Position numbers and translations under genes: made by a program | In this document: positions 13,616 through 64,000 of the stretch, piece by piece | Numbering within the stretch: position 1 is the first letter of the stretch | Layout of the letters: each line of letters opens with the position of its first letter | Source of the DNA: Candidatus Shapirobacteria bacterium | Lineage (GTDB): Bacteria; Patescibacteriota; Microgenomatia; UBA12405 | Assembly: GCA_041661765.1 (NCBI GenBank) | Contig: JBAZTV010000002.1 | Coordinates: 74,212-138,211, forward strand | DNA length: 64,000 nucleotides | Direction of reading: 5' to 3' | Notes under the pieces: generated by a model | The model's input: only the letters and a program-made list of their open reading frames with translations | What the model was told of the DNA's origin: nothing | Database searches by the model: none

Positions 13616-13637
13616 TTCAAAATGATATCATATATTA

Positions 13638-14051
13638 ATGAATCACAGAGTTGTATTCTTCTTATGTATTCTTTTAATAGTGGGTTGGGTATTTTATTTC
13701 AAATTAAAACCAAATAATTTTTCTCTGCTTTTAAATTTTAAACAACCCACACCAGTTTCTCCTGTCTATTATTTAAAAACAACCAGAGAACAAATACAAT
13801 CCTTATTCATTATGGGCAACAGAGATTCATCTGAATGGAATTTTACCTTATCTCAAAAAAGAGCCCTAGAATCCCAAATACTTTGTGACCATAAATTGTC
13901 AGATTTAGGAAATAAACAATTATCACTGGCTCAAAAATATTATAAAACTGGAACATCTTATTTAAACAATCTTATTGATAAAATTGATACCAACTATCTA
14001 TCACAAGAAAAGGAAAAAACTGAAAATTTGATAAAAAATACTTGTAAATAA
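13638..14051 (+). CDS. Hypothetical small membrane-anchored protein (one N-terminal TM).
   Basis: 137-aa ORF with a clean ATG. It fills the gap between flanking genes and has no motif I recognise. Confidence 0.5.
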   Translation: MNHRVVFFLCILLIVGWVFYFKLKPNNFSLLLNFKQPTPVSPVYYLKTTREQIQSLFIMGNRDSSEWNFTLSQKRALESQILCDHKLSDLGNKQLSLAQKYYKTGTSYLNNLIDKIDTNYLSQEKEKTENLIKNTCK

Positions 14052-14056
14052 ATAAT

Positions 14057-15824: not shown

Positions 15825-15847
15825 GATAAGATATTAAATATCTTAAA

Positions 15848-20876: not shown

Positions 20877-20909
20877 TATAGCTTAATTAAATGTTAACAT
20901 TATACAAAC

Positions 20910-47551: not shown

Positions 47552-49015
47552 ATGATTCTAAAACGAGCAGTTAATAATTTGGTAAAAAAAATTCCTCCAA
47601 TAAAAAAACTCATTATTGAGAAAAACACATTAATTGAAGAAAAGAATAATTTAATTGAAGAAAAGAATAATTTAATTGAAGAAAAGAATAATTTAATTGA
47701 AGAAAAGAATAATTTAATTGAAGAAAAGAATAATTTAAATAATATTAATATTAAATTAATAGAAGAAAAAGAAACATTAAAACACGAACTATTTGAACTT
47801 AATCAAATTAGATATCAAATAGTAATACAAAAACTTCAAAAGAAAATTAAACAAAAACAAAAAATAAATGTCATATTTATAGTTATTCACAGTTCAGTTT
47901 GGCAATATGATGATTTATATAAAAAATACAGTAATGATAAAAAATACAACCCAATAATAATTGTTGCACCATACATTCTTTGTAAAAAGGATGAAATGAT
48001 AGAAGAAATGAATAAAAGTTATTCTTATTTTAAGAATAAAAATTACAGCGTGTTAAAAACGTATAATAAAACAAATCTTTTTTCAGACATAAAAACAGAA
48101 TTACAACCCGATATAATATTTTTTACAAACCCACATAAAATTACAAATGACAAATATTATATTAATAATTTTTACAAAGACACTCTAACTTGTTATGTAC
48201 CTTACGGAATCATGTCTGCCAATATAGAAAAAAACCAATATAACCAAGAATTTCACAATCTAACATGGAAAAACTTTTATGAAACGGAAATACATAAAAA
48301 AATAGCAGAAAAATATGCTGATAACAAAGGAGTGAATGTTTTAGTTACAGGTTACCCAAAATGCGATATTTTTTTAAACAGAAAATATAAAGCAAAAAAT
48401 GTTTGGAAAAAAACTGACAAAAATTTAAAAAAAATAATTTGGGCACCCCATCACACTATTGAAAATAATGAAAAAGAATTAGGATATTCAAATTTTTTAG
48501 AATATCATCAAATAATGTTAGATATCGCCAAAAAATATCAAAATAAAATCCAAATAGCCTTTAAACCACATCCAATTTTATTGACTAAACTCAAAACACA
48601 TCCTGATTGGGGAGAGAGAAAAATCCATGATTATTGCGAAAAATGGAAAAATGAAAAAAACACTCAATTAGAACTTGATGAATACACTGATTTGTTTTTA
48701 TCATCAGACGGTATGATTCTCGATAGTGTTTCATTTATTGCAGAATATATGTTTATAAACAAACCAGCTTTGTTTATGATCAAAGACAATACTATTAACA
48801 ATAAATTTAACATTTTTGGCTCAATTGCTTATAACCTTTTATACAAATCACAAAACAAAAATGATTTAATTAATTTTATTGAAACAGTAATTTTAAAAGA
48901 AAAAGATGAAAGAAAAGAACAACGAGAAAAATTTCTTAATCAATATTTAATACCACCAAATAATCATAATGCTACAGATAATATTTATTCATTTATAAAC
49001 AATTATTTAAAATGA
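47552..49015 (+). CDS. TagB/TagF-like CDP-alcohol phosphotransferase (Glyphos_transf) with an N-terminal coiled coil containing (IEEKNNL)x5.
   Basis: ATG at 47552, clean after the upstream stop at 47547. C-terminal VLVTGYPKCDIFL (cf. GYPRND) and FLSSDGMILDSVSFIAEYMFINKPALF. Confidence 0.7.
   Translation: MILKRAVNNLVKKIPPIKKLIIEKNTLIEEKNNLIEEKNNLIEEKNNLIEEKNNLIEEKNNLNNINIKLIEEKETLKHELFELNQIRYQIVIQKLQKKIKQKQKINVIFIVIHSSVWQYDDLYKKYSNDKKYNPIIIVAPYILCKKDEMIEEMNKSYSYFKNKNYSVLKTYNKTNLFSDIKTELQPDIIFFTNPHKITNDKYYINNFYKDTLTCYVPYGIMSANIEKNQYNQEFHNLTWKNFYETEIHKKIAEKYADNKGVNVLVTGYPKCDIFLNRKYKAKNVWKKTDKNLKKIIWAPHHTIENNEKELGYSNFLEYHQIMLDIAKKYQNKIQIAFKPHPILLTKLKTHPDWGERKIHDYCEKWKNEKNTQLELDEYTDLFLSSDGMILDSVSFIAEYMFINKPALFMIKDNTINNKFNIFGSIAYNLLYKSQNKNDLINFIETVILKEKDERKEQREKFLNQYLIPPNNHNATDNIYSFINNYLK
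47612..47737 (+). repeat. In-frame perfect tandem repeat, 21-bp unit attgaagaaaagaataattta x5 plus a degenerate leading copy. Encodes (IEEKNNL)n.
   Basis: Directly visible. Units at 47633-47653, 47654-47674, 47675-47695, 47696-47716 and 47717-47737 are identical. Confidence 0.95.
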
Positions 49016-49611
49016 CAAAATTCATCTTCGATTTAGACGGAACAGTAACATCACAAGAAACATTACCTTTAATATCAAAGCATTTCAATATATCAAAAGA
49101 AATAAATAAAATAACAAAAGAAACTATCCAAGGTAATATTCCTTTCGTTGAAAGCTTCATAAAACGAGTCCATATTTTAGGGAAACTACCAGTTGATGAA
49201 ATTTGTGAATTACTTGAAAAAACTGAATTGTACCCTCAAATAATTTGTTTTATAAAAAAAAATAAAAAGAATTGTGTAATAGCCACAGGAAATTTAGATT
49301 GTTGGGTTGAAAAACTTGTTAAAAAAATTGGATGCCTTTCATACACTTCCAATGCCAACGTAGAGAATAATCACGTTACTAAAATAACACAAATTATTAA
49401 AAAAGAAGATATTGTTAAACAATATAAAAATTTAGGAGAAAAAGTTGTATTTATTGGCGACGGAAACAATGACATGGAGGCCATGAGACTCGCAGATGTT
49501 TCAATTGCTTGTGGTTTAACTCATAAACCAGCCAAAAGTATACTTACTATAACCGATTATTTAGTTTTTAATGAGGAGGCACTATGTCGACAACTAAATC
49601 AGTTATTATAA
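49012..49611 (+). CDS. HAD-superfamily phosphatase, phosphoserine-phosphatase (SerB)-like.
   Basis: FIFDLDGTVTSQE (motif I DxDGT), IGDGNNDMEAM (motif IV). Confidence 0.75.
   Translation: MTKFIFDLDGTVTSQETLPLISKHFNISKEINKITKETIQGNIPFVESFIKRVHILGKLPVDEICELLEKTELYPQIICFIKKNKKNCVIATGNLDCWVEKLVKKIGCLSYTSNANVENNHVTKITQIIKKEDIVKQYKNLGEKVVFIGDGNNDMEAMRLADVSIACGLTHKPAKSILTITDYLVFNEEALCRQLNQLL
49573..49579 (+). promoter_or_regulatory. Strong Shine-Dalgarno sequence GAGGAGG, 5 nt upstream of the ATG at 49584.
   Basis: aatGAGGAGGcactATG. This is the strongest RBS in the window; it lies inside the 3' end of the HAD gene. Confidence 0.5.
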
Positions 49612-50225
49612 GTTGTGCCGGAATAGGTTCAAGGCTCGGCTTAGGTCAAACTAAAGCTTTAATCGATATTGCTGGAAAATCTCTAATTCGTTGGCAATTA
49701 GAACTATTGGATAGTATAAAAGATATAAGAATTGTTGTTGGATATCAATCTAATGATGTTATTAAAGAAGTTTTAAAAATCAGAAAAGATGCAATTTTTA
49801 TCTACAATCATAATTATTTTGAAACAAAAACAGGTGCTAGTTTTTATTTAGGATCAAAAGACGCAAATGAATATGTTATAGAATGGGATGGTGATTTACT
49901 TGTGCATCCTGAAGATGTTAAAAAATGTTTACAAATGGATCAGGAATATATTGGTTACAGTGACAAAGTTTCTGATGAATCTGTTTATGTTAAAACAAAC
50001 AATGAAGGGGATGTTTTAAGTTTTTCAAGAGAAAACGGTGATTACGAATGGACAGGTCCAGCATGTATTAGAAAGAATAAAGTTAAATATACATCTGGTA
50101 ATGTTTTCAATCAACTTGAAGAATATTTACCAATGAAAGGATTAAAAATACGAGCACAAGATATTGATACTTACGATGACTACAAAAAAGCGATAGAATT
50201 TATTAAAAGTTGGCAAAAAAAATAA
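49584..50225 (+). CDS. LicC-like nucleotidyltransferase (CTP:phospho-alcohol / sugar-phosphate cytidylyltransferase).
   Basis: VIISCAGIGSRLGLGQTKALIDIAGKSLIRWQLELL...RIVVGY parallels LicC AAGLGTRL...PKAL...PLIEYQIEFL...IVGY. Confidence 0.7.
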   Translation: MSTTKSVIISCAGIGSRLGLGQTKALIDIAGKSLIRWQLELLDSIKDIRIVVGYQSNDVIKEVLKIRKDAIFIYNHNYFETKTGASFYLGSKDANEYVIEWDGDLLVHPEDVKKCLQMDQEYIGYSDKVSDESVYVKTNNEGDVLSFSRENGDYEWTGPACIRKNKVKYTSGNVFNQLEEYLPMKGLKIRAQDIDTYDDYKKAIEFIKSWQKK

Positions 50226-50227
50226 TA

Positions 50228-50944
50228 ATGAATGTACTTTTTTTAGATCAATTTAAAAAAAAATATTTCAATTTAATATTGAAATACCCCTTCATTGTAA
50301 ATTATATCGCAAATAAACAATCACAAAACTACTGGATAAACCAAAAAAATTGGCGTGTAAAAGACATTTTTTATAAAAGAGCAATCAAACAAGAACAATT
50401 TCTTAAAAAAAACTTCATTCCCCTCCTTAATAAAAATTCTATTATTTGTGATCTTGCTTGTGCTTGTGGCGATTTTGCTTTTATTGTGGCTCCATTTGTT
50501 AAAAAAATTGAAGGATTCGATTTATCTTCTAAAATGGTTAAATTAGCAAATAAAACGGCAAGAGATAAAAAAATCAACAATACTCATTTTTATGAAGCTA
50601 ATATCAATAACTATTTCTTTAAAAGAAAATATGACCACTTTATGTGTTTAGGTCTTTTTACATATATCTTTAACAATAAAGATGCTAATAATATTATTAA
50701 AAAAATTTCAGATTCTATTAAAATAAACGGTTATTTAGTCATAAAAGACACCTTAACAACAGAAAAAAATAACATAATCCATCTCGTATTTAATGATCCA
50801 TATTCAGCAAATTACAGATCCAAAAAAGAATATCTTAAACTATTTAAAGAAAAAAACTTTTCTTTTATTAAAGAAACAAAACTATCAAAAGGAAACGATG
50901 ATCGTTTTTTTAGTTATTGTGCAATTTTTCAAAAAACAAAATGA
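50228..50944 (+). CDS. Class I SAM-dependent methyltransferase.
   Basis: ATG at 50228; the track start at 50210 is TTG. ICDLACACGDFAFIV (motif I), EGFDLSSKMV, INGYLVIKD. Confidence 0.65.
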   Translation: MNVLFLDQFKKKYFNLILKYPFIVNYIANKQSQNYWINQKNWRVKDIFYKRAIKQEQFLKKNFIPLLNKNSIICDLACACGDFAFIVAPFVKKIEGFDLSSKMVKLANKTARDKKINNTHFYEANINNYFFKRKYDHFMCLGLFTYIFNNKDANNIIKKISDSIKINGYLVIKDTLTTEKNNIIHLVFNDPYSANYRSKKEYLKLFKEKNFSFIKETKLSKGNDDRFFSYCAIFQKTK

Positions 50945-51657
50945 AAAAAAATGAAGTTATAGGAATAATTGGTGGAGCAGGTGTTGCAGCCACTAATAAA
51001 TTAAATGAACTTATTGAAAATATTTTTACTCTAAATGGCGCCTTTAGAGACATGCATCATCCTGAAATTATTATTTATCAAGCCACAAAAGCACCTTCAA
51101 GAAGTATGTATCTTGAAGGCAAAGGGGAATCATTTATTAGTGATTACATTAAAATTGGTAAAAAACTTAAAAGTGCGGGTGCTACAACTCTTTGTATGAG
51201 TTGCAACACAGCTCATTATGCTATAGACGAAATTCAAAATGAAGTTGGTTTGCCTTTTATCAATCTAATTGAAGAGGTTGTTTCCGAAATTAAAAACACA
51301 AATCAAAAAAAAATTGGACTAATTGCTTCAGATGGATGTTTAATGGGTAAGGTTTACGAAAAATATTTTGATAAAATTTATCCTGAAGCTAAAATCATTT
51401 ACCCAGACAAAATTTTTCAGCAAGAAGTAACTAGGGGAATTTGCAATATTAAAAATATCAACAGGTTTAAAGAAGACTCCAGTCTAGACAGACCAAAAAA
51501 TATTTTTACCAATGTGAGTAAACATCTAATTAAAAAAAATGCCGACATAATTTTAATCGGATGTACTGATATAAGAGTAGATTATTTTAATCAAAACTCT
51601 GTTGATTCATTAGAAGTTTTAGCAAAAAAAATTTATCAAAAAACATATGAAAAATAA
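50941..51657 (+). CDS. Asp/Glu/hydantoin-racemase-family enzyme (aspartate-racemase-like).
   Basis: VIGIIGGAGVAAT, GKGE, MSCNTAHYAIDEIQ and IILIGCTDI match the two catalytic-Cys motifs (CNTAH / GCTE) of aspartate racemases. Confidence 0.75.
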   Translation: MKKNEVIGIIGGAGVAATNKLNELIENIFTLNGAFRDMHHPEIIIYQATKAPSRSMYLEGKGESFISDYIKIGKKLKSAGATTLCMSCNTAHYAIDEIQNEVGLPFINLIEEVVSEIKNTNQKKIGLIASDGCLMGKVYEKYFDKIYPEAKIIYPDKIFQQEVTRGICNIKNINRFKEDSSLDRPKNIFTNVSKHLIKKNADIILIGCTDIRVDYFNQNSVDSLEVLAKKIYQKTYEK

Positions 51658-52285
51658 CGATGCTTTAATTTTTTTTAAAAATATGTCAAAAAACAAATCG
51701 CTTAACCCCAATTCACTTAAATTGGCAAAAAATAGTGATTTTTCTACAATCGATGCTAAATTTATTTTAAGTCACACAAATAAAAATACAAAAATTCTCG
51801 ATCTAGGAAGTGGAAGTGGTCTTGTTATTAATAAAATTAATGACAAAGTAAAACATATTTTAGCTGTTGAACCTTTTGTTGAATTTACAAAATATATAAA
51901 CACAAACACTAATATTACTATTATAAATAAAGATATCTTAAATTTTAAAACGAACGAACTTTTTGACTTGGTTACAATGTTCGCTGTTGTTCAATATTTT
52001 AATCAAGACGAAATCGTAAAAATTTACACCAAATACAAAAATAATTTAAAAACCAATGGCAAATTAATAATAAAAGGCCAATTTGGAGTAGAGGATGATG
52101 TCATAATTTCTGGTTATTCAGATGAACTAAAAACTAATTATTATTCACAATATCGTCACTTAAATAAAGAAATCGATATTTTAAGAAAAATAGGATATAA
52201 AAATATCGAAGTAGTAGATATATATCCACCAGAGTGCAATCGTTGGAAGAATACCCATTTCTATGCAATAATTGCAGAAAAATAG
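51647..52285 (+). CDS. Class I SAM-dependent methyltransferase.
   Basis: ILDLGSGSGLVINKI (motif I), ILAVEPF, GKLIIKG. Confidence 0.7.
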   Translation: MKNNDALIFFKNMSKNKSLNPNSLKLAKNSDFSTIDAKFILSHTNKNTKILDLGSGSGLVINKINDKVKHILAVEPFVEFTKYINTNTNITIINKDILNFKTNELFDLVTMFAVVQYFNQDEIVKIYTKYKNNLKTNGKLIIKGQFGVEDDVIISGYSDELKTNYYSQYRHLNKEIDILRKIGYKNIEVVDIYPPECNRWKNTHFYAIIAEK

Positions 52286-52304: not shown

Positions 52305-53402
52305 ATGATCAAATTTCTAGATCTTTATAAAATAAACCAACAATACAGAAAAGAAATAAATAAAGCCATTAATCAAGTTTTAGACTCCGGCTATTATATT
52401 TTAGGTCAAGAAGTTAAAAACTTTGAAACAAATTTTGCTAATTGTATTGGAACAAAATATTGTATTGGCACCGCCAATGGACTAGAAGCGCTCACATTAA
52501 TTTTAATGGCCTATAAGGAATTAAATATCCTAAAAGATAATGATGAAATAATTGTTCCAGCCAATACTTTTATAGCCTCAATTTTAGCTATCTCTCAAAA
52601 TAATCTAACTCCAGTTTTGGTCGAACCAGATATAAATACATACAATATTAATCCTGATCTTATTGAAGAAAAAATAACCAAAAAAACAAAAGCTATTATG
52701 ATAGTCCACTTATATGGCCAAACTGTAGAAATGGACAAAATTTGGAAATTAGCCAAAAAATATAATTTAAAAATTATAGAAGATTCGGCACAAGCTCATG
52801 GATCAAAATATAAAAATAAAATGGTCGGAAACCTTGGTGATGCTTCTGGTTTTAGTTTCTATCCGGGAAAAAATTTAGGAGCCATTGGAGATGCTGGCGC
52901 AATTACAACCAATGATAAAAAATTAGCCGACACAATTAGGGCAATTGCTAATTATGGTTCTTCTGAAAAATATGTGAACATTTATAAAGGAATAAACAGT
53001 CGACTCGACGAAATTCAAGCTGCAATTCTTAATATAAAACTTAAATATTTGGATTCCGATAATAATAAAAGACGCATTGTTGCTAAATATTATTTGGACA
53101 ATATTAAAAATCAGAAAATAACTTTACCAAATATAACCGATTTCAATGAGCATAATTTTTACGTCTTTGTAATCAGAACAAAAAATAGAAATCAATTGCA
53201 AAAATATTTAGAAAATAATGGAATTGGATCCTTAATTCATTATCCAATTCCACCCCATAAACAACAAGCATATAAAGAATGGAATAAATTAAATTTACCA
53301 ATTACAGAGCAAATTCACAATGAAATTCTAAGCATCCCCATTAGTCCAGTTTTGACCCAAAATGAAGTGAAAAAAATCGTAAAAGTCTTAAACAATTTTT
53401 AA
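52305..53402 (+). CDS. DegT/DnrJ/EryC1/StrS-family PLP-dependent sugar aminotransferase (FdtB/QdtB-like).
   Basis: [62 protein letters not shown]...[10 protein letters not shown]. Confidence 0.85.
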
Positions 53403-53405
53403 AAT

Positions 53406-53858
53406 TTATTTTTGTTTTGCAGGATTACCAACAACTATCAAACCAGGTAAAACATCTACAACAACTACACTTCCAGCTCCTACCATAGAACCTTCACCGA
53501 TAGTTACTCCAGGTAAAATAGTAGCATTTGCACCAATTGAAGCACCCTTTTTAATTAAAATCCTTTCTTTTTTCCAATTTTTGTTTCCAGACTTTGGATA
53601 TCTATCATTACAAAAAGTCACATTTGGTCCAACAAAAACATCATCTTCAATTGTAATCCCATCCCAAATTTGAACCCCAGATTTAATAGTTACATTATTC
53701 CCAATTACAACTTCATTCTCAATAAAACAATGCGAACAAATATTACAATCATTACCTATTTTTGCATCAGGTAATACAACACAAAATTGCCAAATTCTTG
53801 TACGCTCACCAATTTTTTTACTATCAACAATTGCAGTAGGGTGAATATAAATATCCAT
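53406..53858 (-). CDS. Left-handed beta-helix (hexapeptide-repeat) sugar N-acetyltransferase (FdtC/QdtC/WxcM-N-like).
   Basis: Repeating [LIV]G-x4 hexapeptides: [67 protein letters not shown]. Confidence 0.8.
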
Positions 53859-53860
53859 AA

Positions 53861-54265
53861 TTATTTTATTAATTCTTCAAAAAATGTATCATCGGGAGAC
53901 CATTCAGTGTCAGTATAATTTAATAGTGAAGCTTTTTTACTTAAATTTCTAAAAGAATGAGCTATATTTGGACCAATCTCCAATCTTGTATATTTATCTG
54001 ATTTACTATCTATAATAATTCTAACTATTTCACCAGTTTTCATATCTTTCAAAACTACTTCTACTTTTCCAGTTACCAATCCAAACCATTCTCTCCATTT
54101 TTTATGATAATGATTACCTCTAACGACATTGGACTTACCAAAAGTAACAAAATATATCTGCCCAAATTCCTTAAATTCTTTTTTTAAATCTGAATCTCTT
54201 AAAAAGACTACTAAATGACCTCTTTTGTCATCATGTTTTTCAATAAAATCAATTTTATAATCCAT
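53861..54265 (-). CDS. FdtA/WxcM-C-like cupin: dTDP-4-keto-6-deoxyhexose 3,4-ketoisomerase.
   Basis: ATG at 54265 (MDYKIDF); the track start at 54331 is further upstream and probably non-[13 protein letters not shown]...[28 protein letters not shown] matches the FdtA RG..H.HKK pattern. Confidence 0.75.
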
Positions 54266-54314
54266 AACACTTCCATTATAGCAATAATGATAAAATTCAT
54301 AAACAAATAGACAT

Positions 54315-55880
54315 ATGAAAAAGAAAATCATCTCTTTCCTAAATAAATACTGGATTTTACTGTCATTTTTATCAATTTTTACAATCTACATACTACCGGT
54401 TTGTTTTCAAAACAACAATAATTTAAACCTAGTTTCCGCTGAACATATTGATAGTGGTTCTATCCTCGGCAGTATCATGCAAATGAATAGCAAAAATACA
54501 CCAAACTCTTTTTATAATCAAAATATTCCATACCACACCGGCTTTTATGGCTACCCCTACAATAGTATTGTATTTTGGAGCTTCAAATTCGAAAAAATAT
54601 TTTTCAGATCATATGCCAACATTAATTTTTATATTTTTCCATTAATTGCAAAATTATTAAATTTTATTTTTGCTTCATTTTCAATAATATATCTGTATCA
54701 ACTATCAAGAAAAATCCTAAAATATAATCTATCAAGAATTTTATTACTTTCGCTTTTCATAATTTTCCCCGAATATCTTCATTACGTTTTTCATATTAAG
54801 CCAGATATTTTAGGTTTATTATTTTCAATAATATCCCTAAATTACTTATATGATTATTTACAAAATTCTAAAAATAATAAAAATATAATTAAAGCCAATG
54901 TTTTTGGCGGACTATCTATTTTGTGCAAACAACCACACATATTTATAATTTTCCCTTTATTAATAGGGTTCGTTTCTTCTTTAAAAGGTAACCTAAAAGA
55001 AAAACTTTCCATTTTTTTTAAAACATATTTATACTCTGGAATAATTTTTCTATTTTTATTTTTTATTATTCACCCCTATGCCTTCCTGGAACTAAAAGCA
55101 TTTTTAGCAAGACAAATATTGATGACAAGTATGACATCCGCCAGTTATATCGATAATATTAACTTTTGGTTGCCAACATTTATCGGGGATCCATTACTCT
55201 TTATCTTTGTATTCACTCCATTTATTTTTATATTATTAAATTTATTTAAAAAGTTTCGCAATAAAACAACACTATTTTTGTTATTAATTTCAACATATAT
55301 TATTAGTTATCTTTTATGGTTAACCCTAAAAGTTGGCCCAATGCGATTTATTCATTACTTAATTCCGGTTTTTCCTTTTTCAATTTTAATTTTTTCTTAC
55401 ATTTTTGACTTTTTTTTCAATAAAACATTTTGCTCAAAATCTAAAATCAACCAAATATTTTATCTAACTATTTTTATAACGGTTTTTTTATTATCAGTAA
55501 AAACCATCAACTATACAATTATTAAAACCAAAAATATTATACAATCGCCCTATGATTTTCAAAAAACAGAAACATACAAAGCCACCAAAAAGTTTGAAAA
55601 AGAATTCAGTAATGAGCAATTAAATAAAAAAACAATAATTTACTCGATATCCTTACCAGTAAACGATACCCTATATGAAAATTCTATCAACACTTGGCAG
55701 GTTAATGAAAAAGTTGTTAATGAATTAAAACCGGAATATCTTTTCATTGATTTCACTGTTTATTGGGAAAAACCATATGAATATTGGGAAAAAATTGCTA
55801 AACAAAACGAATTGAACAAAGAAATGTTGTTTATAGACAATTTTGATAAAGAAAAAAATATAGTTCTTTTCTACAAATAA
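54315..55880 (+). CDS. Polytopic membrane protein, possibly a distant family B member (GFYGYPYN motif).
   Basis: 521 aa with 12+ TM. AEHIDSGSILGSIMQMN...NIPYHTGFYGYPYN echoes HDDM...GQIP...GFGYGYPLF. Divergent from 53861-54265, with only 49 bp between them. Confidence 0.6.
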   Translation: MKKKIISFLNKYWILLSFLSIFTIYILPVCFQNNNNLNLVSAEHIDSGSILGSIMQMNSKNTPNSFYNQNIPYHTGFYGYPYNSIVFWSFKFEKIFFRSYANINFYIFPLIAKLLNFIFASFSIIYLYQLSRKILKYNLSRILLLSLFIIFPEYLHYVFHIKPDILGLLFSIISLNYLYDYLQNSKNNKNIIKANVFGGLSILCKQPHIFIIFPLLIGFVSSLKGNLKEKLSIFFKTYLYSGIIFLFLFFIIHPYAFLELKAFLARQILMTSMTSASYIDNINFWLPTFIGDPLLFIFVFTPFIFILLNLFKKFRNKTTLFLLLISTYIISYLLWLTLKVGPMRFIHYLIPVFPFSILIFSYIFDFFFNKTFCSKSKINQIFYLTIFITVFLLSVKTINYTIIKTKNIIQSPYDFQKTETYKATKKFEKEFSNEQLNKKTIIYSISLPVNDTLYENSINTWQVNEKVVNELKPEYLFIDFTVYWEKPYEYWEKIAKQNELNKEMLFIDNFDKEKNIVLFYK

Positions 55881-55920: not shown

Positions 55921-57189
55921 TTATATTTTAGGATTTATCGTTATATTTTTTAAAAAACCATTTAAAACTCTTTTTATATAATCCATCCTTTCTTTATTAA
56001 TTCCTGGCCAAACACCCAACCAAAAAGCATTATTCATAATAATATCCGACTCTTTCATTTCTCCAACGATCCTAAAATTATCTCTAATTTTTATATAAGC
56101 TGGATGACGAAGCAAATTTCCTGCAAAAACATTTCTTGTTCCTATTTTATTTTTTTCTAAATATTCAGTTAATTCATTCCTTGTAAATGGAGCATCTTTT
56201 TTTACTACTAATGGAAACCCAAAAGGGGACAAGTCCACTTTTTCATCCTCTCTCATCAGGGTAAAATATTTTTCATATTTATTAAAAAAATTATATAAAA
56301 TCTTATAGTTCTCTTGTCTTTTCTTAATAAATTTTGGCAATTTTTTTAATTGAGCCAATCCAATTGCTGCCTGAAAATCAGTTAATTTTAAATTATATCC
56401 TACCTCAGAATAAATATATTTATGGTCGTAACCATAAGGTAATTCTCCTAACTGCCATTTAAATCGATTTTTACAAGAATCATCTTTGCCAGTTCCACAC
56501 CAACAATCTCTACCCCAATCCCTAAAACGTCTAATTGATTTATTAATTAATGGATCGTTGGTAATAATCGCTCCACCTTCACCCATGGTAATATGATGAG
56601 CTGGATAAAAACTAAAAGTTGCAATATGACCAAAAGTACCTAAAATTTTACCATCATACTTTGACCCTAAAGCGTCACAACAGTCTTCAATTAACCACAA
56701 ATCATATTTTTTAACCAACTTCATAATTTCTGTAAGATCAAAAGGTTTTCCTAAAGTATGAGCAATCATTATTAATTTAGTTTTATTGGTTATTGCCGCT
56801 TCAATTTTCTTTGGGTCAATATTAAGAGTGTCTGCCTCGGCATCAATAAACACCGGTTTCAAACCATGCTGAATTCCCGGATTTACAGTTGTTGGAAAAG
56901 ATACAGGAGTAGTTATAAATTCATCTCCTACTTTAAGCCTCTTCTCACCAAAAATATCTGATGTCAGCGCCGCTAATGCTACTAAATTTGCCGAAGATCC
57001 AGAATTAACTAATGATACAAATTTAATTCCTAAATATTTTTTAAACTCTTCTTCAAATTTTAAAGCGAATTCTCCCTCTGTCCACCAACCATCTTTCGCT
57101 ACTTTTATAGCATTATTAATTTCTTCCTTATCAAAAACTTTACCAGAAACTGGTATATAACTTTCACCTGGTGTAAATTTTTTATTCAT
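55921..57189 (-). CDS. RfbH/DdhC(E1)/ColD-like PLP/PMP-dependent NDP-4-keto-6-deoxyhexose 3-dehydrase.
   Basis: GKVFDKEEINNAIKVAKDGWWTEGEFALKFEEEFKKYLGIKFVSLVNSGSSANLVALAAL matches the RfbH N-terminal region closely. 422 aa. Confidence 0.8.
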   Translation of the reverse strand: MNKKFTPGESYIPVSGKVFDKEEINNAIKVAKDGWWTEGEFALKFEEEFKKYLGIKFVSLVNSGSSANLVALAALTSDIFGEKRLKVGDEFITTPVSFPTTVNPGIQHGLKPVFIDAEADTLNIDPKKIEAAITNKTKLIMIAHTLGKPFDLTEIMKLVKKYDLWLIEDCCDALGSKYDGKILGTFGHIATFSFYPAHHITMGEGGAIITNDPLINKSIRRFRDWGRDCWCGTGKDDSCKNRFKWQLGELPYGYDHKYIYSEVGYNLKLTDFQAAIGLAQLKKLPKFIKKRQENYKILYNFFNKYEKYFTLMREDEKVDLSPFGFPLVVKKDAPFTRNELTEYLEKNKIGTRNVFAGNLLRHPAYIKIRDNFRIVGEMKESDIIMNNAFWLGVWPGINKERMDYIKRVLNGFLKNITINPKI

Positions 57190-57199
57190 AAAATTAATT

Positions 57200-58141
57200 T
57201 TAAAAATTTAATTTTTCATCAACAATATAAACAGGTCTATTTTTTGTTTCTTCAACTATTACCTGAACATATTTACCTATTATACTCAATGCCATTAAAT
57301 TTAATCCACCAAAAAACACCACCGCTAACATAATTGGAATTGATGCATTAATTGGATTGCCAAAAACAAATACTGTAAATAAATACCCAATAATAAACAA
57401 AAATGAAAGTATTGTTAAAATAAAACCAAAATAAACAATCAAATCTAAAGGAAGATAAGAAAAGCCAAAAATTCCTCTTTCTGAATGTTTTAAATAATCA
57501 AAAAAACCACCATAAGAGCTTTTGCCATTTTTTCTATCGCACCTTTGGTAGGAAACGAAAGTTTTTTTAAAACCAACCCAAATACTTAACCCTCTACCAA
57601 ACCGAAATTTTTCTGGAAGAGATCTTATAGCAGTAACTATTTTTTTATCATATAATCCAAAACCAGAAACATTAACAGGTATATCGATATTAGATATTCT
57701 TCTAAATAATCCATAAAATGACTTTCTCATTAAAGTCATAAAATAAGAATTATCACTTGCCTTCTCGTATTGAGCCAACACTAGATCGTATTTATTTTCC
57801 CATTGTTTTATTAATTTTGGTATTAATTCAGGTGGATCTTGCAAATCACAAGGTAACATTATCAAAGCATCTAATTCTTCATTCGCAAAATCCATAACTG
57901 CCTGGCTAGAAGCTTCTGGCCCAAAATTTCTGGATAAAAAAACTCCTCTTACTTTTTTATCTCTCTTTATAAGAGTACTTATTTTTTCTCTAGTCTTATC
58001 AATACTTCCATTATCAACAAACAAAAAACTAAATTCGTAATTTTTAATTTTACTAATTATTTCTATAGTCTTTTCATACATTTCCAAAACATTTTTTTCT
58101 TCATTAAAACATGGAATACCAATAACTATTTTTTTATTCAT
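57200..58141 (-). CDS. GT2 polyprenyl-phosphate glycosyltransferase (GtrB/ArnC/DPM1-like) with two C-terminal TM helices.
   Basis: IVIGIPCFNEEKNVLEMY...FLFVDNGSIDKT...DLQDPPELIP, plus a C-terminal TM pair. Confidence 0.85.
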   Translation of the reverse strand: MNKKIVIGIPCFNEEKNVLEMYEKTIEIISKIKNYEFSFLFVDNGSIDKTREKISTLIKRDKKVRGVFLSRNFGPEASSQAVMDFANEELDALIMLPCDLQDPPELIPKLIKQWENKYDLVLAQYEKASDNSYFMTLMRKSFYGLFRRISNIDIPVNVSGFGLYDKKIVTAIRSLPEKFRFGRGLSIWVGFKKTFVSYQRCDRKNGKSSYGGFFDYLKHSERGIFGFSYLPLDLIVYFGFILTILSFLFIIGYLFTVFVFGNPINASIPIMLAVVFFGGLNLMALSIIGKYVQVIVEETKNRPVYIVDEKLNF

Positions 58142-59024
58142 TCTTGATTAATAAATTAGGATTAATAATTGATTTATTAGATAAATAATATCTATATAAA
58201 TCTTTTATAGCTACTTCTATTTTTGTCAATTTTAAATTTTTAATTTCTTTTTTAAGAAGATCATTATTTGAAGTATATTCTTTATTTAGACCATTTTGTT
58301 TTACAATTATTGGTAAAGAATAATTATCCAATTTATTAATTTCTTTTGCTAATTCAAGCAAACTATATTTATTACCACTTCCAACATTAAAAAATTTTTC
58401 TTTTAGATCATTCTTAATAAAATATTCTATTATTTTCATAAAATCATCAATGTAAACATAATCAAATTTACAATCCCGAATCAAAGTTAAAGGCATTTTA
58501 TAGATATATTTGCAAAGTAAATTAGAAATAAATTTAATTGTAAAATCTTCATATTTTCCAAAAACTCCAAAAATTCTCAAACAATAAATATTAGTTGAAT
58601 TTTCAATATACTTTGAACAAACATATTTATAAAAACCATAATCATCACTAGGAATATTCAAACCAAAATCTGATTCTTTTACATTTATAATATCTTTCGA
58701 TTTACCATATTCAGCCCCAGAACCAAAATGAATCATTTTTTTAAAATAGTTTTTGTTTTTTACAATATTAAAAAACATTTTTAAATTATTTTTAATCGAA
58801 TCATTCAAAACCATACTATTTCTCAATCCACCAATATTGGCTGTATGAATTACTACGTCTATCTTATTTTTTTTAAAAAAATTATCAACTGCCACTGTAT
58901 CCAAAAGATCCAACTCTTTATGCGAAGGACTTAAAATTTTATACTTATCCTTAAAACATTCAACAAAATTTCTCCCAATAAATCCCGTTCCACCAGTTAA
59001 AAAAATTGTTTCAATTTTATTCAT
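58134..59024 (-). CDS. NAD(P)-dependent sugar epimerase/dehydratase/reductase (extended SDR).
   Basis: IFLTGGTGFIGRNFVE (GxxGxxG), catalytic YGFYKYVCSK (YxxxK). Confidence 0.8.
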   Translation of the reverse strand: MNKIETIFLTGGTGFIGRNFVECFKDKYKILSPSHKELDLLDTVAVDNFFKKNKIDVVIHTANIGGLRNSMVLNDSIKNNLKMFFNIVKNKNYFKKMIHFGSGAEYGKSKDIINVKESDFGLNIPSDDYGFYKYVCSKYIENSTNIYCLRIFGVFGKYEDFTIKFISNLLCKYIYKMPLTLIRDCKFDYVYIDDFMKIIEYFIKNDLKEKFFNVGSGNKYSLLELAKEINKLDNYSLPIIVKQNGLNKEYTSNNDLLKKEIKNLKLTKIEVAIKDLYRYYLSNKSIINPNLLIKNE

Positions 59025-59071: not shown

Positions 59072-59962
59072 ATGTCAAAAGAAAAAAGTATTAAAAAAAC
59101 AAATATTGCCATAATTGGATCAGGAAACATCGGATGTGACCTTTTAATTAAAATTAATAGATCGAAAGTTTTAAAATGTAATAGATTTATCGGGCAAAAT
59201 AAAGATTCAGATGGTTTACAAATGGCAAAATCATTGGGAATAAACACTTCGTTTGATTCAATTAATGAAATAATTAAAAATCCCGATTGCTGCGATATTG
59301 TATTTGATGCTACATCTGCAGATGCTCATAAAATTCACGCCCCAATACTTAAAAAACTCAATAAATTTACTATAGATATGACTCCATCAAGAATAGGAAA
59401 AATGTGTGTGCCATATTTAAATTTAGATGAATGTTTAAAAGAAAAAAACGTAAATATGATCACTTGTGGAGGACAAGCAACCACACCAATAATATCAACA
59501 ATAATGAAAGTTCATCCTGAAACAAAATATGTAGAAATTGTATCCAGTATTTCATCAAAATCTGCCGGAATTGGAACCAGAAATAACATTGATGAATACA
59601 CCCAAACAACTAGCGATGCAATAAAAATTTTAGGAGGAGCACCAAAATCAAAAGCCATAATTATTCTAAACCCTGCTGAACCTCCAATATTAATGCACAA
59701 TACTATTTTTGCCCAAATAGAAAACCCTAATATTGCAAAATTAGAAAAAGAAATTAATTTAACAGTTAATGAAATTCAAAAATATATACCAGGGTATAAA
59801 TTAACACTAGGCCCAGTTTTTGAAAATAATCGATTAACAGTAATGATAGAAGTTACTGGGCAAGGAGATTTTTTGCCTATTTATGCTGGTAATTTAGATA
59901 TTATAAATTGTGCCGCAATCACGGTAGCTGAAAACTATGCAAAAAAATATCTTAATAATTGA
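59072..59962 (+). CDS. Acetaldehyde dehydrogenase (acylating), DmpF/MhpF-like.
   Basis: ATG at 59072; the track start at 59006 is TTG. IAIIGSGNIGCDLLIKINRS...SDGLQMAKSLGI...VFDATSADAHKIHAP...IDMTPSRIGKMCVPYLNLDE tracks DmpF nearly motif for motif. Confidence 0.8.
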   Translation: MSKEKSIKKTNIAIIGSGNIGCDLLIKINRSKVLKCNRFIGQNKDSDGLQMAKSLGINTSFDSINEIIKNPDCCDIVFDATSADAHKIHAPILKKLNKFTIDMTPSRIGKMCVPYLNLDECLKEKNVNMITCGGQATTPIISTIMKVHPETKYVEIVSSISSKSAGIGTRNNIDEYTQTTSDAIKILGGAPKSKAIIILNPAEPPILMHNTIFAQIENPNIAKLEKEINLTVNEIQKYIPGYKLTLGPVFENNRLTVMIEVTGQGDFLPIYAGNLDIINCAAITVAENYAKKYLNN

Positions 59963-60983
59963 TTCAACACTAAGAGATGGCTCTCACGCTATGAGTCATC
60001 AATTTACAGCTCAAAATATTTCTGATTATGCCAAAGGTGCAGAATTAGCGGGAACAAAAATTTTAGTAGTTGGTCATGGAAATGGATTAGGAGCTTCGTC
60101 ATTACAACTAGGACAATCACTTTTAAGTGATAAAAAAATGCTCACCACTGCAAAAAAAGAATTAACAAAAACAAAATTAGCTGTACTCCTTATACCTGGA
60201 TACGGAACAATAAAAGAAAATATTGAACCCGCAATTTCCTATGGCATTGATGTTTTAATAGTCGCTTCACATTGTACTGAAGCTAATATCACCAAACAAC
60301 ACATCCAATATGGATTAAATAAAGGATTAGAAGTATATGGTGTTTTAATGATGTCTCACATGATTTCAGCTGATTTATTACTCAAACAAGCCTTACTCAT
60401 GCAGGAATATGGAGTAAAAGGAGTAATATTGATGGATTCCGCTGGTGCTTATCTTCCAGAAGATGTAACTAAAAAAATATCATCTTTAGTAAAAGGTTTA
60501 AAAATAGAAGTCGGATTTCACGCTCATAATAATTTAGGGTTAGCCATAGCTAATTCTTTAACTGCTATAAAAGCAGGGGCCACAATTTTAGACGTCACGT
60601 CTCGAGGACTTGGAGCAGGCGCAGGAAATTGTCAATTAGAAGTATTGGCTGCCATTCTTCAAAAAATGGATATAAAGACCAATTTAGACTTATACAAATT
60701 AATGGACAACAGTGAAAATATTATTGCCAAATTAATGAAACATCCACAAGTAATAAATAATGTTACTCTCACTAGCGGATTAGCTGGAGTATTTTCCGGA
60801 TTTGCTCCTCATGTAATAAAAGCTGCTAATAGATTTAATGTCGATGCTAGAGATATTCTGATAGAATTAGGAAAAAAGAAAGTAGTTGGTGGGCAAGAAG
60901 ATATAATTATTGACGTAGCTACCTTTTTGAAACAAAAAAAAGATTTAAAAGAAAATAATTGTAATATTGAATCATTACAATAA
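59937..60983 (+). CDS. 4-hydroxy-2-oxovalerate aldolase-like (DmpG/MhpE; HMGL-like TIM barrel).
   Basis: ILIIDSTLRDGSHAMSHQFTAQNISDYAKGAELAGTKILVVGHGNGLGASSLQLG compared with DmpG LYISDVTLRDGSHAIRHQYS...VAHGDGLQGSS. Overlaps the dehydrogenase gene by 26 bp, the same order as dmpFG. Confidence 0.8.
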   Translation: MQKNILIIDSTLRDGSHAMSHQFTAQNISDYAKGAELAGTKILVVGHGNGLGASSLQLGQSLLSDKKMLTTAKKELTKTKLAVLLIPGYGTIKENIEPAISYGIDVLIVASHCTEANITKQHIQYGLNKGLEVYGVLMMSHMISADLLLKQALLMQEYGVKGVILMDSAGAYLPEDVTKKISSLVKGLKIEVGFHAHNNLGLAIANSLTAIKAGATILDVTSRGLGAGAGNCQLEVLAAILQKMDIKTNLDLYKLMDNSENIIAKLMKHPQVINNVTLTSGLAGVFSGFAPHVIKAANRFNVDARDILIELGKKKVVGGQEDIIIDVATFLKQKKDLKENNCNIESLQ

Positions 60984-61004
60984 TTAATAATTTAATAAAA
61001 ATTT

Positions 61005-62780
61005 ATGACTGTCAGTGAATATATAATGGATTTTTTAGTTAGTAAAGGCGCTAATACTATTTTTATGGTAACCGGAGGCCAAGCCATGTGGCTTGACGAT
61101 GCAGTCTGTAAAAATAAAAAAATAAAATATATTTGCACCCACCATGAGCAATCAGCCGGAATGGCTGCCGAGGCTTATGGAAGAATTACAGGTAAAATGG
61201 GGGTTGCTTTAGTTACTGCGGGACCAGCAGCCATAAATGTATTAAATGGAGTCGTCGGAGCATGGACAGATTCATCACCAATGATGGTTATTTCCGGACA
61301 AGCACCTTTAACACATGTTCAATATCAACAAAAAACCAAAATTCGTCAATACGGTATTCAAGGAATAAATATTAAACCATTAGCAGAAAAAGTTGTGAAG
61401 TTTTTTATCACAGTAGATGATCCATCACTGATTAAATATTATTTACAAAAAGCATATTATTTAGCCACTTCAGGAAGAGTAGGACCTGTTTGGATTGATG
61501 TTCCACTTGATATCCAAAATACCACCGTTCCAGAGAAATTTCTAAAAGAATTTATTCCTGAAAAAGAAAACATTAACAATAATGATTTAAAATCCAAAGT
61601 TGCTGAAACTTTAAAACTAATCAAAAATGCTAAGCGCCCAATTATTTTAGCTGGTCAAGGAGTAAGAAATGGAAAAGCTGTCGATAAATTCTACAAACTA
61701 ATCGACGAAATACCCATGCCAGTTTTAACATCAAGATTAGGTATAGATTTAATTAATAGCGATCACAAACTTTATATAGGTAGACCTGGAAATTACGGGG
61801 AAAGATCAGCCCATTTTGCTATTCAAAATTCCGATCTAATTATTGTTTTAGGAAGTCGTTTAGCCACTGCACTGGTTGGCCATAACCCTAAAGATTTTGG
61901 GCGAAATGCTAAAAAAATTGTAGTAGATATCGACGAAGAAGAATTAAATAAACCAGGTGTAGATTTACATCTTAAAATAAACTCTGATATAAAAATTTTC
62001 TTAAACGAATTATTAAGCCAAGCCAAATCAGTTGAATTGCCAAATTTTAAAAATTGGATAGATAAATGCAATGAGTGGAAAATAAAATATCCAGTCGTTT
62101 TGCCTGAATATAAAAAAGAAAAACCAATTAATTCATACTATTTTACTCAAAAATTATCAGAACTAGCCTCTCCAAAAGACATGATTATGGTTGATACTGG
62201 ATCTTGTTTTCATATAGTTTGTCAAACTTGGAAAATTAAAAAAGGACAAAGATTTTTAACAACTGGAGGAATTTCCTCAATGGGTTATTGGGTAGCTGGT
62301 TTAGGTGCATGTGCGGCCAATAATTATAAAAATACTATTGTTATTACTGGAGACGGAAGTTTACAAATGAATATTCAAGAATTTGCCACAATAAAACACA
62401 ATAAATTTCCAATTAAAACCTTTATATTTAACAACAATGGATATTTATTAATTCGACAAACTCAAAAAAACTTTATGGAAGGCAGATTGATGGGTGAAAG
62501 TCCAGAAACAGGAGTTTGGTGTCCAGATTCAATAAAAATTGCCAAAGCTTATGGAATAAAGGCTGTAAAAATAAGTTCTATTGATAATATGGAAAAAAAG
62601 ATAAAAGAAGTATTGGACTATCCAGGGCCAGTCGTTTGTGAAGTCATAACACCACCTTGGCAATTAATAATTCCAAGAACTGCTTCTACTAAAAATGAAG
62701 AAGGGAAATTGATTTCTAAACCATATGAAGATATGTTTCCATTTTTAAGCAAAGAAGAACTTGATTCAAATATTTTATAA
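61005..62780 (+). CDS. Thiamine-diphosphate-dependent enzyme of the acetolactate-synthase/YerE-like family.
   Basis: 591 aa. The N-terminal Pyr domain (MVTGGQAMWLDD...HHEQSAGMAAEAYGRITGKMGVALVTAGPAAINVLNGVVGAWTDSSPMMVISGQ) and the C-terminal PP domain (ITGDGSLQMNIQE) are both present. Confidence 0.85.
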   Translation: MTVSEYIMDFLVSKGANTIFMVTGGQAMWLDDAVCKNKKIKYICTHHEQSAGMAAEAYGRITGKMGVALVTAGPAAINVLNGVVGAWTDSSPMMVISGQAPLTHVQYQQKTKIRQYGIQGINIKPLAEKVVKFFITVDDPSLIKYYLQKAYYLATSGRVGPVWIDVPLDIQNTTVPEKFLKEFIPEKENINNNDLKSKVAETLKLIKNAKRPIILAGQGVRNGKAVDKFYKLIDEIPMPVLTSRLGIDLINSDHKLYIGRPGNYGERSAHFAIQNSDLIIVLGSRLATALVGHNPKDFGRNAKKIVVDIDEEELNKPGVDLHLKINSDIKIFLNELLSQAKSVELPNFKNWIDKCNEWKIKYPVVLPEYKKEKPINSYYFTQKLSELASPKDMIMVDTGSCFHIVCQTWKIKKGQRFLTTGGISSMGYWVAGLGACAANNYKNTIVITGDGSLQMNIQEFATIKHNKFPIKTFIFNNNGYLLIRQTQKNFMEGRLMGESPETGVWCPDSIKIAKAYGIKAVKISSIDNMEKKIKEVLDYPGPVVCEVITPPWQLIIPRTASTKNEEGKLISKPYEDMFPFLSKEELDSNIL

Positions 62781-62845: not shown

Positions 62846-64000
62846 ATGAATAAAAACATTAAAAATTTAAATGATGAAATTTTTACTTTAAATGCAGAAT
62901 TTAGTGCTGATACAAGAGTAGACAAAATTAATGGAGGAATAGGAATATACCTTGACAACATAGGACAACCTTTTGTTATTCCTATTGTAAAAAAAATCGC
63001 CTCCTCGCTAGATTTTTCAAACTTTAATTACTTACCAATAAGTGGTGATCCAGTCTTTTTAGAAGAATCGTCTAAACTTGTTTTAGGAAATAGTTTATAT
63101 AAAGAATATAAAAACAAAATTATTAAACAGGGAACAGATGGAGGAACAAATGGACTTTTTATTTGGGCAAGTTTAATAAAATTTACAAATCCAAATCCTA
63201 CAATAATAGTTAGTAATCCTACATGGGAAAACCACAAAAAAATCTTCAAACACTGTGGTTTTAATGTTGTTGAATATAATCATATTAATAAATTAGGATT
63301 TTTTGATTTTGAATCTTTCCAAAAAACTATTTCTAAATATCCAGATTCTTTTATTCTTTTTCATGGAGGATCAACTCATAATCCCACAGGTGTAAATCCC
63401 TCAACTGAAGAATGGAAAAAAATATCTCAAATAACCAAAAAAAATAATAATTATGTTTTATTTGATTTTGCTTATTTAGGCTTGGGAGAAAATATAGAAA
63501 AAGACTCTTTTCCAATAAGACATTTTCTTGAAAAGAAAAATAAAATAGCTGTTGTGATTTCATATTCAAAAAATATGACTTTATATCAACATCGGGTCGG
63601 AGTTTTACTTATACCAACACTTAAAATAAAAGCAAAAGAAAACAATGAAACAATCATTAAATATTTATTTAGATTGGTCAATCAAACTCCAACCGCTTTT
63701 GGTGAAATCATAGTAAAAAATGTATTGAGTAACCAAGAATATAAAAAAGAATGGATAAAATCATTATCTGAAATGAATAAAAACATTCAAAAAAGACGTG
63801 AATTATTTAATCAATATACCAACAACCTGTTTTCTGAAGTTGTACACCAAAAAGGCTTGTATAGTTTACTAAAAATCACTCCAAAACAAACAAAAATATT
63901 AAAAAACAAACACGGCATCTATCTTCTTTCCACCGGACGTATTAACTTTGGAGGATTGGCTATTAATAAAATTCCAAAATTAACCGAAGCTATAAATTCT
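62846..64000 (+). CDS. Class I aspartate/aromatic aminotransferase (AspC/TyrB-like), 3'-truncated at the window edge.
   Basis: ATG at 62846, open through 64000. Absent from the ORF track because no stop falls in the window. GIGIYLD, HNPTGVNPSTEEW, FDFAYLGLGE, SYSKNMTLYQHRVG and RINFGGL match AAT family I signatures. Confidence 0.8.
   Translation, partial: MNKNIKNLNDEIFTLNAEFSADTRVDKINGGIGIYLDNIGQPFVIPIVKKIASSLDFSNFNYLPISGDPVFLEESSKLVLGNSLYKEYKNKIIKQGTDGGTNGLFIWASLIKFTNPNPTIIVSNPTWENHKKIFKHCGFNVVEYNHINKLGFFDFESFQKTISKYPDSFILFHGGSTHNPTGVNPSTEEWKKISQITKKNNNYVLFDFAYLGLGENIEKDSFPIRHFLEKKNKIAVVISYSKNMTLYQHRVGVLLIPTLKIKAKENNETIIKYLFRLVNQTPTAFGEIIVKNVLSNQEYKKEWIKSLSEMNKNIQKRRELFNQYTNNLFSEVVHQKGLYSLLKITPKQTKILKNKHGIYLLSTGRINFGGLAINKIPKLTEAINS

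Follow-up and report, generated by a model that had tools for sequence, protein, structure and literature searches.

A probable erwiniose-type cassette for an acyl-branched CDP-3,6-dideoxyhexose in a surface-glycan locus of Candidatus Shapirobacteria

The DNA considered here (the window) is a stretch of 64,000 nt from Candidatus Shapirobacteria, a member of the Patescibacteria with a GC content of about 28% (about 24-33% within the window). Towards its right end are three co-oriented genes that encode, in order, an acylating acetaldehyde dehydrogenase, a class II pyruvate aldolase and a thiamine diphosphate (ThDP)-dependent carboligase, together referred to below as the trio (Table 1; positions throughout are window coordinates, and L-numbers are labels of the loci compared, L001 being the source contig). 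An earlier note on this DNA had recognised an acetaldehyde dehydrogenase, a hydroxy-oxo-acid aldolase and a ThDP enzyme of 591 residues at these positions, and profile searches of the window proteins against Pfam and NCBIfam (the latter judged by its curated cutoffs) bore this out, with E-values so far past chance that the three genes are confirmed as real. The note had also spoken of the pair as fused into a sugar-biosynthesis operon, but the genes are separate, the first two overlapping by 26 nt, with a 21-nt gap to the ThDP gene and 65 nt from there to an aminotransferase gene that extends 12 nt beyond the window end (in full, L001:6484-7650). The start of the dehydrogenase gene is the ATG at 59072 in the source-contig annotation, with an alternative TTG upstream at 59006. 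A gene for a short-chain dehydrogenase/reductase (SDR) diverges from it across a 47-nt spacer and, as the note had observed, shares the minus strand with a gene for an RfbH-like 3-dehydrase. Past the window end, in L001 and convergent with the aminotransferase gene, are genes for a cytidine diphosphate (CDP)-glucose 4,6-dehydratase-like protein (RfbG) and a glucose-1-phosphate cytidylyltransferase-like protein (RfbF). The trio has dideoxyhexose genes on both of its flanks, RfbH on one and RfbG and RfbF on the other, and does not lie at the edge of the island.

Table 1. Features of the window, beginning with the trio and its neighbours (aa, amino acids; PMP, pyridoxamine phosphate)
Feature	Position	Strand	Size, matches and remarks
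Acylating acetaldehyde dehydrogenase (DmpF/BphJ/ErwJ-like)	59072-59962	+	296 aa; TIGR03215, PF09290
Class II pyruvate aldolase, 4-hydroxy-2-oxovalerate aldolase (DmpG/BphI/ErwI-like)	59937-60983	+	348 aa; TIGR03217, PF00682, PF07836
ThDP carboligase (YerE/ErwE-like)	61005-62780	+	591 aa; PF02776, PF00205, PF02775
SDR, extended epimerase/reductase type; candidate ErwF/YerF-like branch-ketone reductase	58134-59024	-	PF01370, E 2e-27; putative role
GT2 polyprenyl-phosphate glycosyltransferase (GtrB/ArnC/PgfS-like)	57200-58141	-	PF00535
RfbH/DdhC (E1), PMP- and [2Fe-2S]-dependent CDP-4-keto-6-deoxyglucose 3-dehydrase	55921-57189	-	NF011936
AspC/TyrB-like class I aminotransferase	62846-64000 (cut by the window end)	+	388 aa in full; PF00155
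Polytopic membrane protein, no family	54315-55880	+	521 aa; included by position alone
Six PMT_2/PMT-type GT-C membrane proteins, with two PTPS-related membrane proteins among them	12014-25816		
Seventh PMT_2 protein, fused to TPR repeats	39005-40783		
CofD-like 2-phospho-L-lactate transferase homologue	40814-41800		

In the ThDP enzyme, the catalytic Glu48 and both halves of the GDG...NN cofactor motif (GDG449-451 and NNN476-478) are invariant. The best NCBIfam model was that of the biosynthetic acetolactate synthase, TIGR00118, at 362 bits against a cutoff of 538, and the enzyme also fell below cutoff in all the models of acetohydroxyacid synthase (AHAS), acetolactate synthase (ALS), glyoxylate carboligase and sulfoacetaldehyde acetyltransferase. 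The closest solved structure was 8rph (374 bits, E 8e-111), identified in two papers as JanthE, a ketone-accepting carboligase of the YerE kind from Janthinobacterium sp. HH01; it was followed by PpYerE (5ahk, 255 bits), by plant and bacterial AHAS at about 240 bits and, far from the firm grouping that the earlier note had regarded as telling against sugar branching, by catabolic ALS at only 110-139 bits. JanthE takes ketone acceptors and 4-hydroxy-2-oxovalerate, works with a wide choice of donors, pyruvate among them, and carries a CDG motif where the window enzyme has the canonical GDG. Relatives listed in the protein database at 65-90% identity, under source names that include Patescibacteria, Elusimicrobiota, Pseudomonadota, Desulfotomaculaceae, Clostridium and Omnitrophota, mark a tight orthologous group, and database entries label homologues "acetolactate synthase large subunit". 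Those labels and the TIGR00118 match are what speaks for a housekeeping origin, in which an acetolactate synthase serving valine or acetoin formation, a fermentative or catabolic DmpFG pair and a general aminotransferase would happen to abut the island. The cutoffs speak against it, as does a tblastn search of plasmids with the ThDP enzyme, a negative control that returned only ordinary ilvB at about 30% identity, and nowhere in the 64-kb window was there an ACT-domain small subunit of AHAS, an ilvC, ilvD or other ilv gene, or an alsD-like gene. By profile and structure scores, the ThDP enzyme groups with the YerE-like JanthE and not with AHAS or ALS.

The neighbourhood of the enzyme was followed across genomes by a scan with the ThDP protein, using one genome per species, and the best 80 loci (59-73% identity, and including neither Pectobacterium nor Yersinia) were retained as related loci. 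Among the 65 of these with sufficient upstream DNA, the dehydrogenase, aldolase and ThDP genes were adjacent, co-oriented and in the same order in 64, the one exception having an SDR gene inserted in between. The record titles of the loci with the trio name groups from roughly a dozen phyla, including Patescibacteria, Clostridia, Elusimicrobiota, Omnitrophota, Desulfobacterota, Planctomycetota, Lentisphaerota, Verrucomicrobiota, Melainabacteria and Fibrobacter, and the cassette is present in two cultured Clostridia, Clostridium gasigenes DSM 12272 (L048) and Lachnotalea glycerini DSM 28816 (L070). The usual operon order is RfbF-RfbG-RfbH-dehydrogenase-aldolase-ThDP-reductase-GT2, and among the 40 loci with long flanks RfbH was found in 35, and RfbF and RfbG in 30 each. 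With the window trio lying between RfbH and RfbG/RfbF, and this dideoxyhexose linkage recurring across phyla, the housekeeping explanation is largely refuted and retains next to no probability; the earlier note's preference for a sugar-branching system of the YerE type over housekeeping metabolism has stood up well.

The dehydrogenase passed the cutoff of TIGR03215 comfortably (393 bits against 282) and matched PF09290 with an E-value of 8e-52, and its matches among solved structures included 7z3s (304 bits) and DmpF (1nvm_B, 254 bits), with which its catalytic cysteine motif, ITCGGQAT, aligns. The aldolase scored 392 bits with TIGR03217 (cutoff 286) and 263 bits against DmpG (1nvm_A), and has kept the equivalents of Arg17, Asp18, His21, His200 and His202. 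It contains both PF00682 and PF07836, the communication domain of DmpG, so that, counting PF09290 of the dehydrogenase, three of the domains to which the earlier note had looked for such a pair are present. Both proteins thus share with DmpFG and BphIJ of the meta-cleavage pathways the fold, the catalytic residues and the communication (channelling) domain, and exceed the cutoffs of the equivalog hidden Markov models; the pair differs from them at the stereocontrol residues of the aldolase, and in that the direction proposed here is synthetic. In BphI, Tyr290 blocks the 4R enantiomer and so enforces 4S products, Y290F loses stereocontrol, and the double mutants L87W/Y290F and L87N/Y290F are 4R-specific (PMC3962088). 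In an alignment on DmpG of the window aldolase and 70 aldolases from related loci, the position of Tyr290 was Phe in all 71 and that of Leu87 was Phe or Tyr in 69. With Phe at the former position and, in nearly all, an aromatic residue at the latter, the glycan-linked aldolases resemble the 4R-specific enzyme engineered from BphI, which would suit the R preference of ErwE described below. The window aldolase itself has Leu at position 87, a residue private to its genome (Phe takes its place in the closest relative, L089), and the PGFG of most family members is PGYG in this protein. The idea that the pair is a remnant of a meta-cleavage pathway was rejected, given the Phe at the Tyr290 position and that Pfam scans of the 64-kb window found none of the hydratase, hydrolase or dioxygenase genes of such a context.

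The genes for the acceptor sugar were examined in the same way. The RfbH protein scored 629 bits with NF011936 (cutoff 423), as expected from the 3-dehydrase assignment made in the earlier note, and 482 bits against the E1 structure 3bcx, with the equivalents of His220 and of Cys251, Cys253 and Cys261 kept (C229-x-C231-x7-C239); the His and the C-x-C-x7-C motif of E1 were likewise found in most of the RfbH neighbours of the trio in related loci. Homologues of the SDR, at 32-54% identity, were present in 27 related loci, mostly directly after the ThDP gene. The GT2 matched PgfS (NF047588, 208 bits) and ArnC (97 bits), both under cutoff, was 56-61% identical to its counterparts in the closest loci, and in other loci had GtrA-like genes alongside it. 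Its size and family suggest a polyprenyl-phosphate sugar transferase, which we propose loads the sugar onto a lipid carrier. Because of the kind of GT2, its GtrA-like companions and the many GT-C enzymes of the window, the branched sugar probably travels by way of the lipid carrier and is attached outside the membrane. The membrane protein of 521 residues had no Pfam or NCBIfam match and is not conserved in the related loci; by its position alone, it is a weak candidate for a transferase of lipid-linked sugar that would use the product of the GT2.

The trio and the dideoxyhexose genes have a precedent in the erw cluster of Pectobacterium atrosepticum SCRI1043, which comprises ErwE (ThDP), ErwF (reductase), ErwJ (acetaldehyde dehydrogenase), ErwI (a BphI-like aldolase) and the genes for CDP-4-keto-3,6-dideoxyglucose (Steitz et al. 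2022, PMC9306805). In the route to erwiniose deduced there, ErwJ converts acetyl-CoA to acetaldehyde, ErwI joins this to pyruvate in an aldol reaction, ErwE carries out the branching and ErwF the reduction; the branching enzyme was the only one assayed, and it coupled 4-hydroxy-2-oxopentanoate, with a preference for R, to a ketone that served as a model for the sugar, and rejected pyruvate (PMC9306805). The window shares with the erw cluster a YerE-like ThDP carboligase, a BphI/DmpG aldolase, a BphJ/DmpF dehydrogenase, CDP-3,6-dideoxyhexose genes and a surface-glycan setting, and its SDR is a candidate counterpart of the NAD(P)H reductase. It differs in its gene order (E-F-J-I for erw, judged by the order of accessions, and here J-I-E with a divergent SDR), in its additional AspC-like aminotransferase and linked polyprenyl-phosphate GT2, in having no linked E3, and in its host from the Patescibacteria. 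Our searches of the literature for an aldolase/dehydrogenase pair in O-antigen loci turned up only the Steitz paper and subsequent reviews.

Based on this precedent, we consider it likely that the locus is an erwiniose-type cassette for an acyl-branched CDP-3,6-dideoxyhexose inside the large surface-glycan locus of this member of the Patescibacteria. Because the gene set matches the erw cluster part for part, with the SDR as the candidate for ErwF, the same mechanism is assigned to the window, and with it putative substrates of the window proteins, which reach beyond the gene identities, catalytic residues and conserved linkage documented above. RfbF, RfbG and RfbH would convert glucose-1-phosphate to CDP-4-keto-3,6-dideoxy-D-glucose, with the electrons for E1 coming from an unlinked donor, and the dehydrogenase would reduce acetyl-CoA to acetaldehyde. 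The aldolase, working in the synthetic direction, would then condense acetaldehyde with pyruvate to 4-hydroxy-2-oxopentanoate, probably of the 4R configuration. This acid would be decarboxylated by the ThDP enzyme and the resulting 3-hydroxybutanoyl unit joined to the C4 ketone of the sugar, after which the divergent SDR would reduce the ketone of the branch to give a 4-C-(1,3-dihydroxybutyl) sugar. The GT2 would place the sugar on polyprenyl phosphate, from which a GT-C enzyme, one of many encoded in the locus, would transfer it.

Two other branching systems bear on this assignment. In the synthesis of yersiniose A by YerE and YerF of Yersinia pseudotuberculosis, an acyl anion is likewise added by a ThDP enzyme to CDP-4-keto-3,6-dideoxy-D-glucose and the product is then reduced (PMC9306805), but YerE uses pyruvate, the branch has two carbons, and there is no aldolase/dehydrogenase pair such as is linked to the ThDP gene here. 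It was a branch of this kind, with two carbons derived from pyruvate, that the earlier note had envisaged: its YerE logic was right in kind, and its branch length was not, in that the same gene set has been published as giving a C4 branch. Were the window system nonetheless of the yersiniose type, the ThDP enzyme would use pyruvate to form an acetyl branch and the pair would only balance the pools of pyruvate, acetaldehyde and acetyl-CoA. The classes of the ThDP enzyme, E1 and SDR would all fit YerE and YerF, and JanthE, the closest solved relative, accepts pyruvate besides longer acids. Such a role in supply, however, leaves the adjacency of the trio in nearly all loci across many phyla unexplained; ErwE, from the sole characterised cluster with the same gene set, does not accept pyruvate; and the substitutions at the stereocontrol positions of the aldolase suggest selection on the aldol product and not on cleavage. 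We therefore regard a C2 branch as very unlikely, and the role of supplying or recycling C2 and C3 units that the note had given to the pair gives way to that of the published model, in which the pair makes 4-hydroxy-2-oxopentanoate, the donor of the ThDP enzyme. The second system is the caryophyllose cluster of Mycobacterium marinum, in which an aldolase (MMAR_2331) and a ThDP enzyme (MMAR_2332) follow the same aldolase-then-carboligase logic for long acyl branches, but with an aldolase of the HpcH/HpaI/citrate-lyase type and a C6 branch. Designs resembling it were found in the Patescibacteria loci L083 and L088, with ThDP paralogues 41-43% identical to the window enzyme, and not in the window.

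Several points weigh against an erwiniose-type assignment. The ThDP enzyme is only 33% identical to JanthE, and the likeness to the erw cluster is one of gene set, the sequences of ErwE (WP_011093010), ErwF and YerE standing outside the comparison. The RfbF-like and RfbG-like genes fall slightly under the cutoffs of TIGR02623 (279 bits against 300) and TIGR02622 (201 against 278), although these are their best matches. Neither the window nor the source contig nor any of the 80 related loci yielded an E3 reductase (DdhD/AscD); Pfam scans of all open reading frames (ORFs) of the window gave no assignment that fits, and a plant-type ferredoxin motif was absent from the window and L001, while the 80 loci together had it in no more than two small ORFs. 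With no linked E3, the acceptor pathway therefore needs an unlinked electron donor encoded elsewhere. The Leu at position 87 makes the stereochemistry and aldehyde range of the window aldolase appear less predictable than those of the family, the structures of the glycan products of these organisms are not on record, and the published erwiniose scheme offers no step for the conserved AspC-like gene.

This last gene merits consideration in its own right. The aminotransferase scored 301 bits with NF006719 (cutoff 377) and conserves Lys258, Arg266, Arg292, Arg386, Asn194, Asp222 and Tyr225 of AspC, i.e., the residues for pyridoxal phosphate and for both of the substrate carboxylates. Homologues with 41-100% identity to it all carry names from Patescibacteria, and in all five of the contexts from other organisms examined at 41-55% identity they lie inside ThDP-branching cassettes, with a DmpFG-type pair in L084, L085 and L086 and an HpcH/HpaI aldolase (caryophyllose-like) in L083 and L088; a homologue at 40% identity is unlinked to such a cassette. 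In the closest relative, L089, a class I/II aminotransferase gene beside the ThDP gene overlaps it by 4 nt. None of the 80 loci retrieved by the genome scan, those of other Patescibacteria included, has the gene. On this synteny (five of five contexts and the overlap in L089) a housekeeping neighbour was rejected, and the aminotransferase is a conserved, lineage-specific member of the cassette in Patescibacteria and not a bystander. The possibility raised in the earlier note, that the trio and the AspC-like gene merely abut the island, is at odds with this, with the near-universal linkage of the trio and with the position of the aminotransferase gene between the ThDP gene and the CDP-glucose genes. 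A sugar aminotransferase acting on the ketone of the branch was down-weighted, since both of the carboxylate-binding arginines of amino-acid aminotransferases are kept, and judged by these residues the enzyme appears to be an amino-acid/2-oxo-acid transaminase. It might supply oxaloacetate, pyruvate or another donor acid, or salvage the hydroxy-oxo acid.

Thus, a second idea can be put forward more tentatively, and we would call it possible and no more: that the cassette of Patescibacteria recruited a dedicated aminotransferase of the AspC/TyrB type and dispenses with a linked E3. This aminotransferase may act as a supplier of the aldolase or the carboligase, either by converting aspartate to oxaloacetate, as a decarboxylating donor of pyruvate enolate, or by providing another 2-oxo acid derived from an amino acid. 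If true, this would mean a modified pathway and possibly an undescribed branched sugar. Taken further, the aminotransferase and the unusual pocket of the window aldolase (Leu 87, PGYG) could alter the donor acid to such an extent that the branch is not the 1,3-dihydroxybutyl group of erwiniose; the donor might draw on pyruvate enolate from aspartate via oxaloacetate, on another 2-oxo acid of amino-acid origin or on a longer aldehyde. The embedding of the AspC-like gene in the cassette and of its homologues in cassettes with either type of aldolase, the overlap in L089, the two retained arginines, the private Leu at 87 and a phosphoenolpyruvate carboxylase gene beside the aminotransferase gene in one related locus can all be read in this way, and Steitz et al. 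(PMC9306805) name transamination as an alternative route to donor 2-oxo acids. Yet the dehydrogenase/aldolase pair is intact and typical of its family, with acetaldehyde and pyruvate as its simplest input, and the absence of the aminotransferase from the 80 scanned loci makes it dispensable for the core chemistry. A product other than the erwiniose branch is accordingly unlikely, although less so than a two-carbon branch, and an erwiniose-type cassette is the reading we retain.

The comparison of loci also brought to light variations around the cassette. Many loci, mostly of Patescibacteria (L003, L004, L005, L008, L047, L054, L085 and L088), have two to four YerE-like ThDP paralogues per glycan region, which are 40-45% identical to the DmpFG-linked clade, with one subclade tied to HpaI-type aldolases. 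Among the annotated loci L083, L085 and L088, the neighbours of the paralogues are HpcH/HpaI-type or unassigned aldolase-sized genes, together with dehydroquinate-synthase-like and PfkB genes in L083 and L085, and aspartate kinase, asd and hom in L088. The presence of several YerE-like paralogues suggests that such hosts make several different branched sugars. In five loci (L021, L028, L029, L040 and L044), a split transketolase pair of about 280 and 310 residues is near the cassette, and may provide a further ThDP-dependent step in related sugar pathways. In several loci (among L020, L021, L027, L031, L038, L041, L055, L060 and L089), the ThDP gene is directly followed by genes for a GNAT acetyltransferase and for a class I aminotransferase of a different kind; L089 has the two fused in one protein of 588 residues, whose gene precedes that of the dehydrogenase. 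An amino-acetylated variant of the pathway is hinted at by this arrangement.

Most of the window is one large glycan locus with many GT2 and GT1 glycosyltransferases, in addition to B12/radical-SAM enzymes, methyltransferases, an ABC-2 exporter and a Wzx-like flippase. Encoded together at 52305-54331 are a DegT aminotransferase, a hexapeptide acetyltransferase and an FdtA/WxcM-like cupin, a set typical of the synthesis of 3-acetamido-3,6-dideoxyhexoses, which may represent a second unusual sugar pathway beside the branching cassette. The row of genes at 49012-52285, encoding a SerB-like HAD phosphatase, a small nucleotidyltransferase, two methyltransferases and an Asp/cysteate-racemase-like protein (137 bits with the CuyB model, under its cutoff of 190), may provide the glycan with an amino-acid or phospho-substituent. 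Amid the glycosyltransferases and methyltransferases, a radical-SAM enzyme and a B12-binding radical-SAM enzyme, at 29411-30910 and 36576-38090, could be C-methylases or other sugar-modifying enzymes. Scans for signals in the window were uninformative in such AT-rich DNA, with 30 promoter-like sites found against 40 expected in shuffled sequence and terminators at chance level only, and blastn of the trio DNA against all complete Escherichia coli genomes gave zero matches.

The mechanism of erwiniose formation had already been proposed, and partly demonstrated, in 2022, and what is new here is its probable appearance in an unexpected lineage, a candidate phylum of tiny genomes, along with two local peculiarities of the window cassette, in which an AspC-like gene is embedded and to which no E3 is linked. 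Chemical identification of acyl-branched sugars has been achieved in only a few organisms, and solving their structures is difficult. The occurrence of the published gene signature for a C4-branched 3,6-dideoxyhexose in a bacterium of the candidate phyla radiation offers a concrete prediction of surface chemistry for organisms that cannot be grown, while the cultured Clostridia with the trio can be analysed directly. For biocatalysis, the related loci are of interest as a natural source of class II pyruvate aldolases that are probably 4R-selective, and of ketone-accepting ThDP carboligases. If the reading is true, the spread of the trio at 59-73% identity implies that 4-C-acyl-branched dideoxyhexoses are common, and chemically unseen, on the surfaces of uncultured and anaerobic bacteria.

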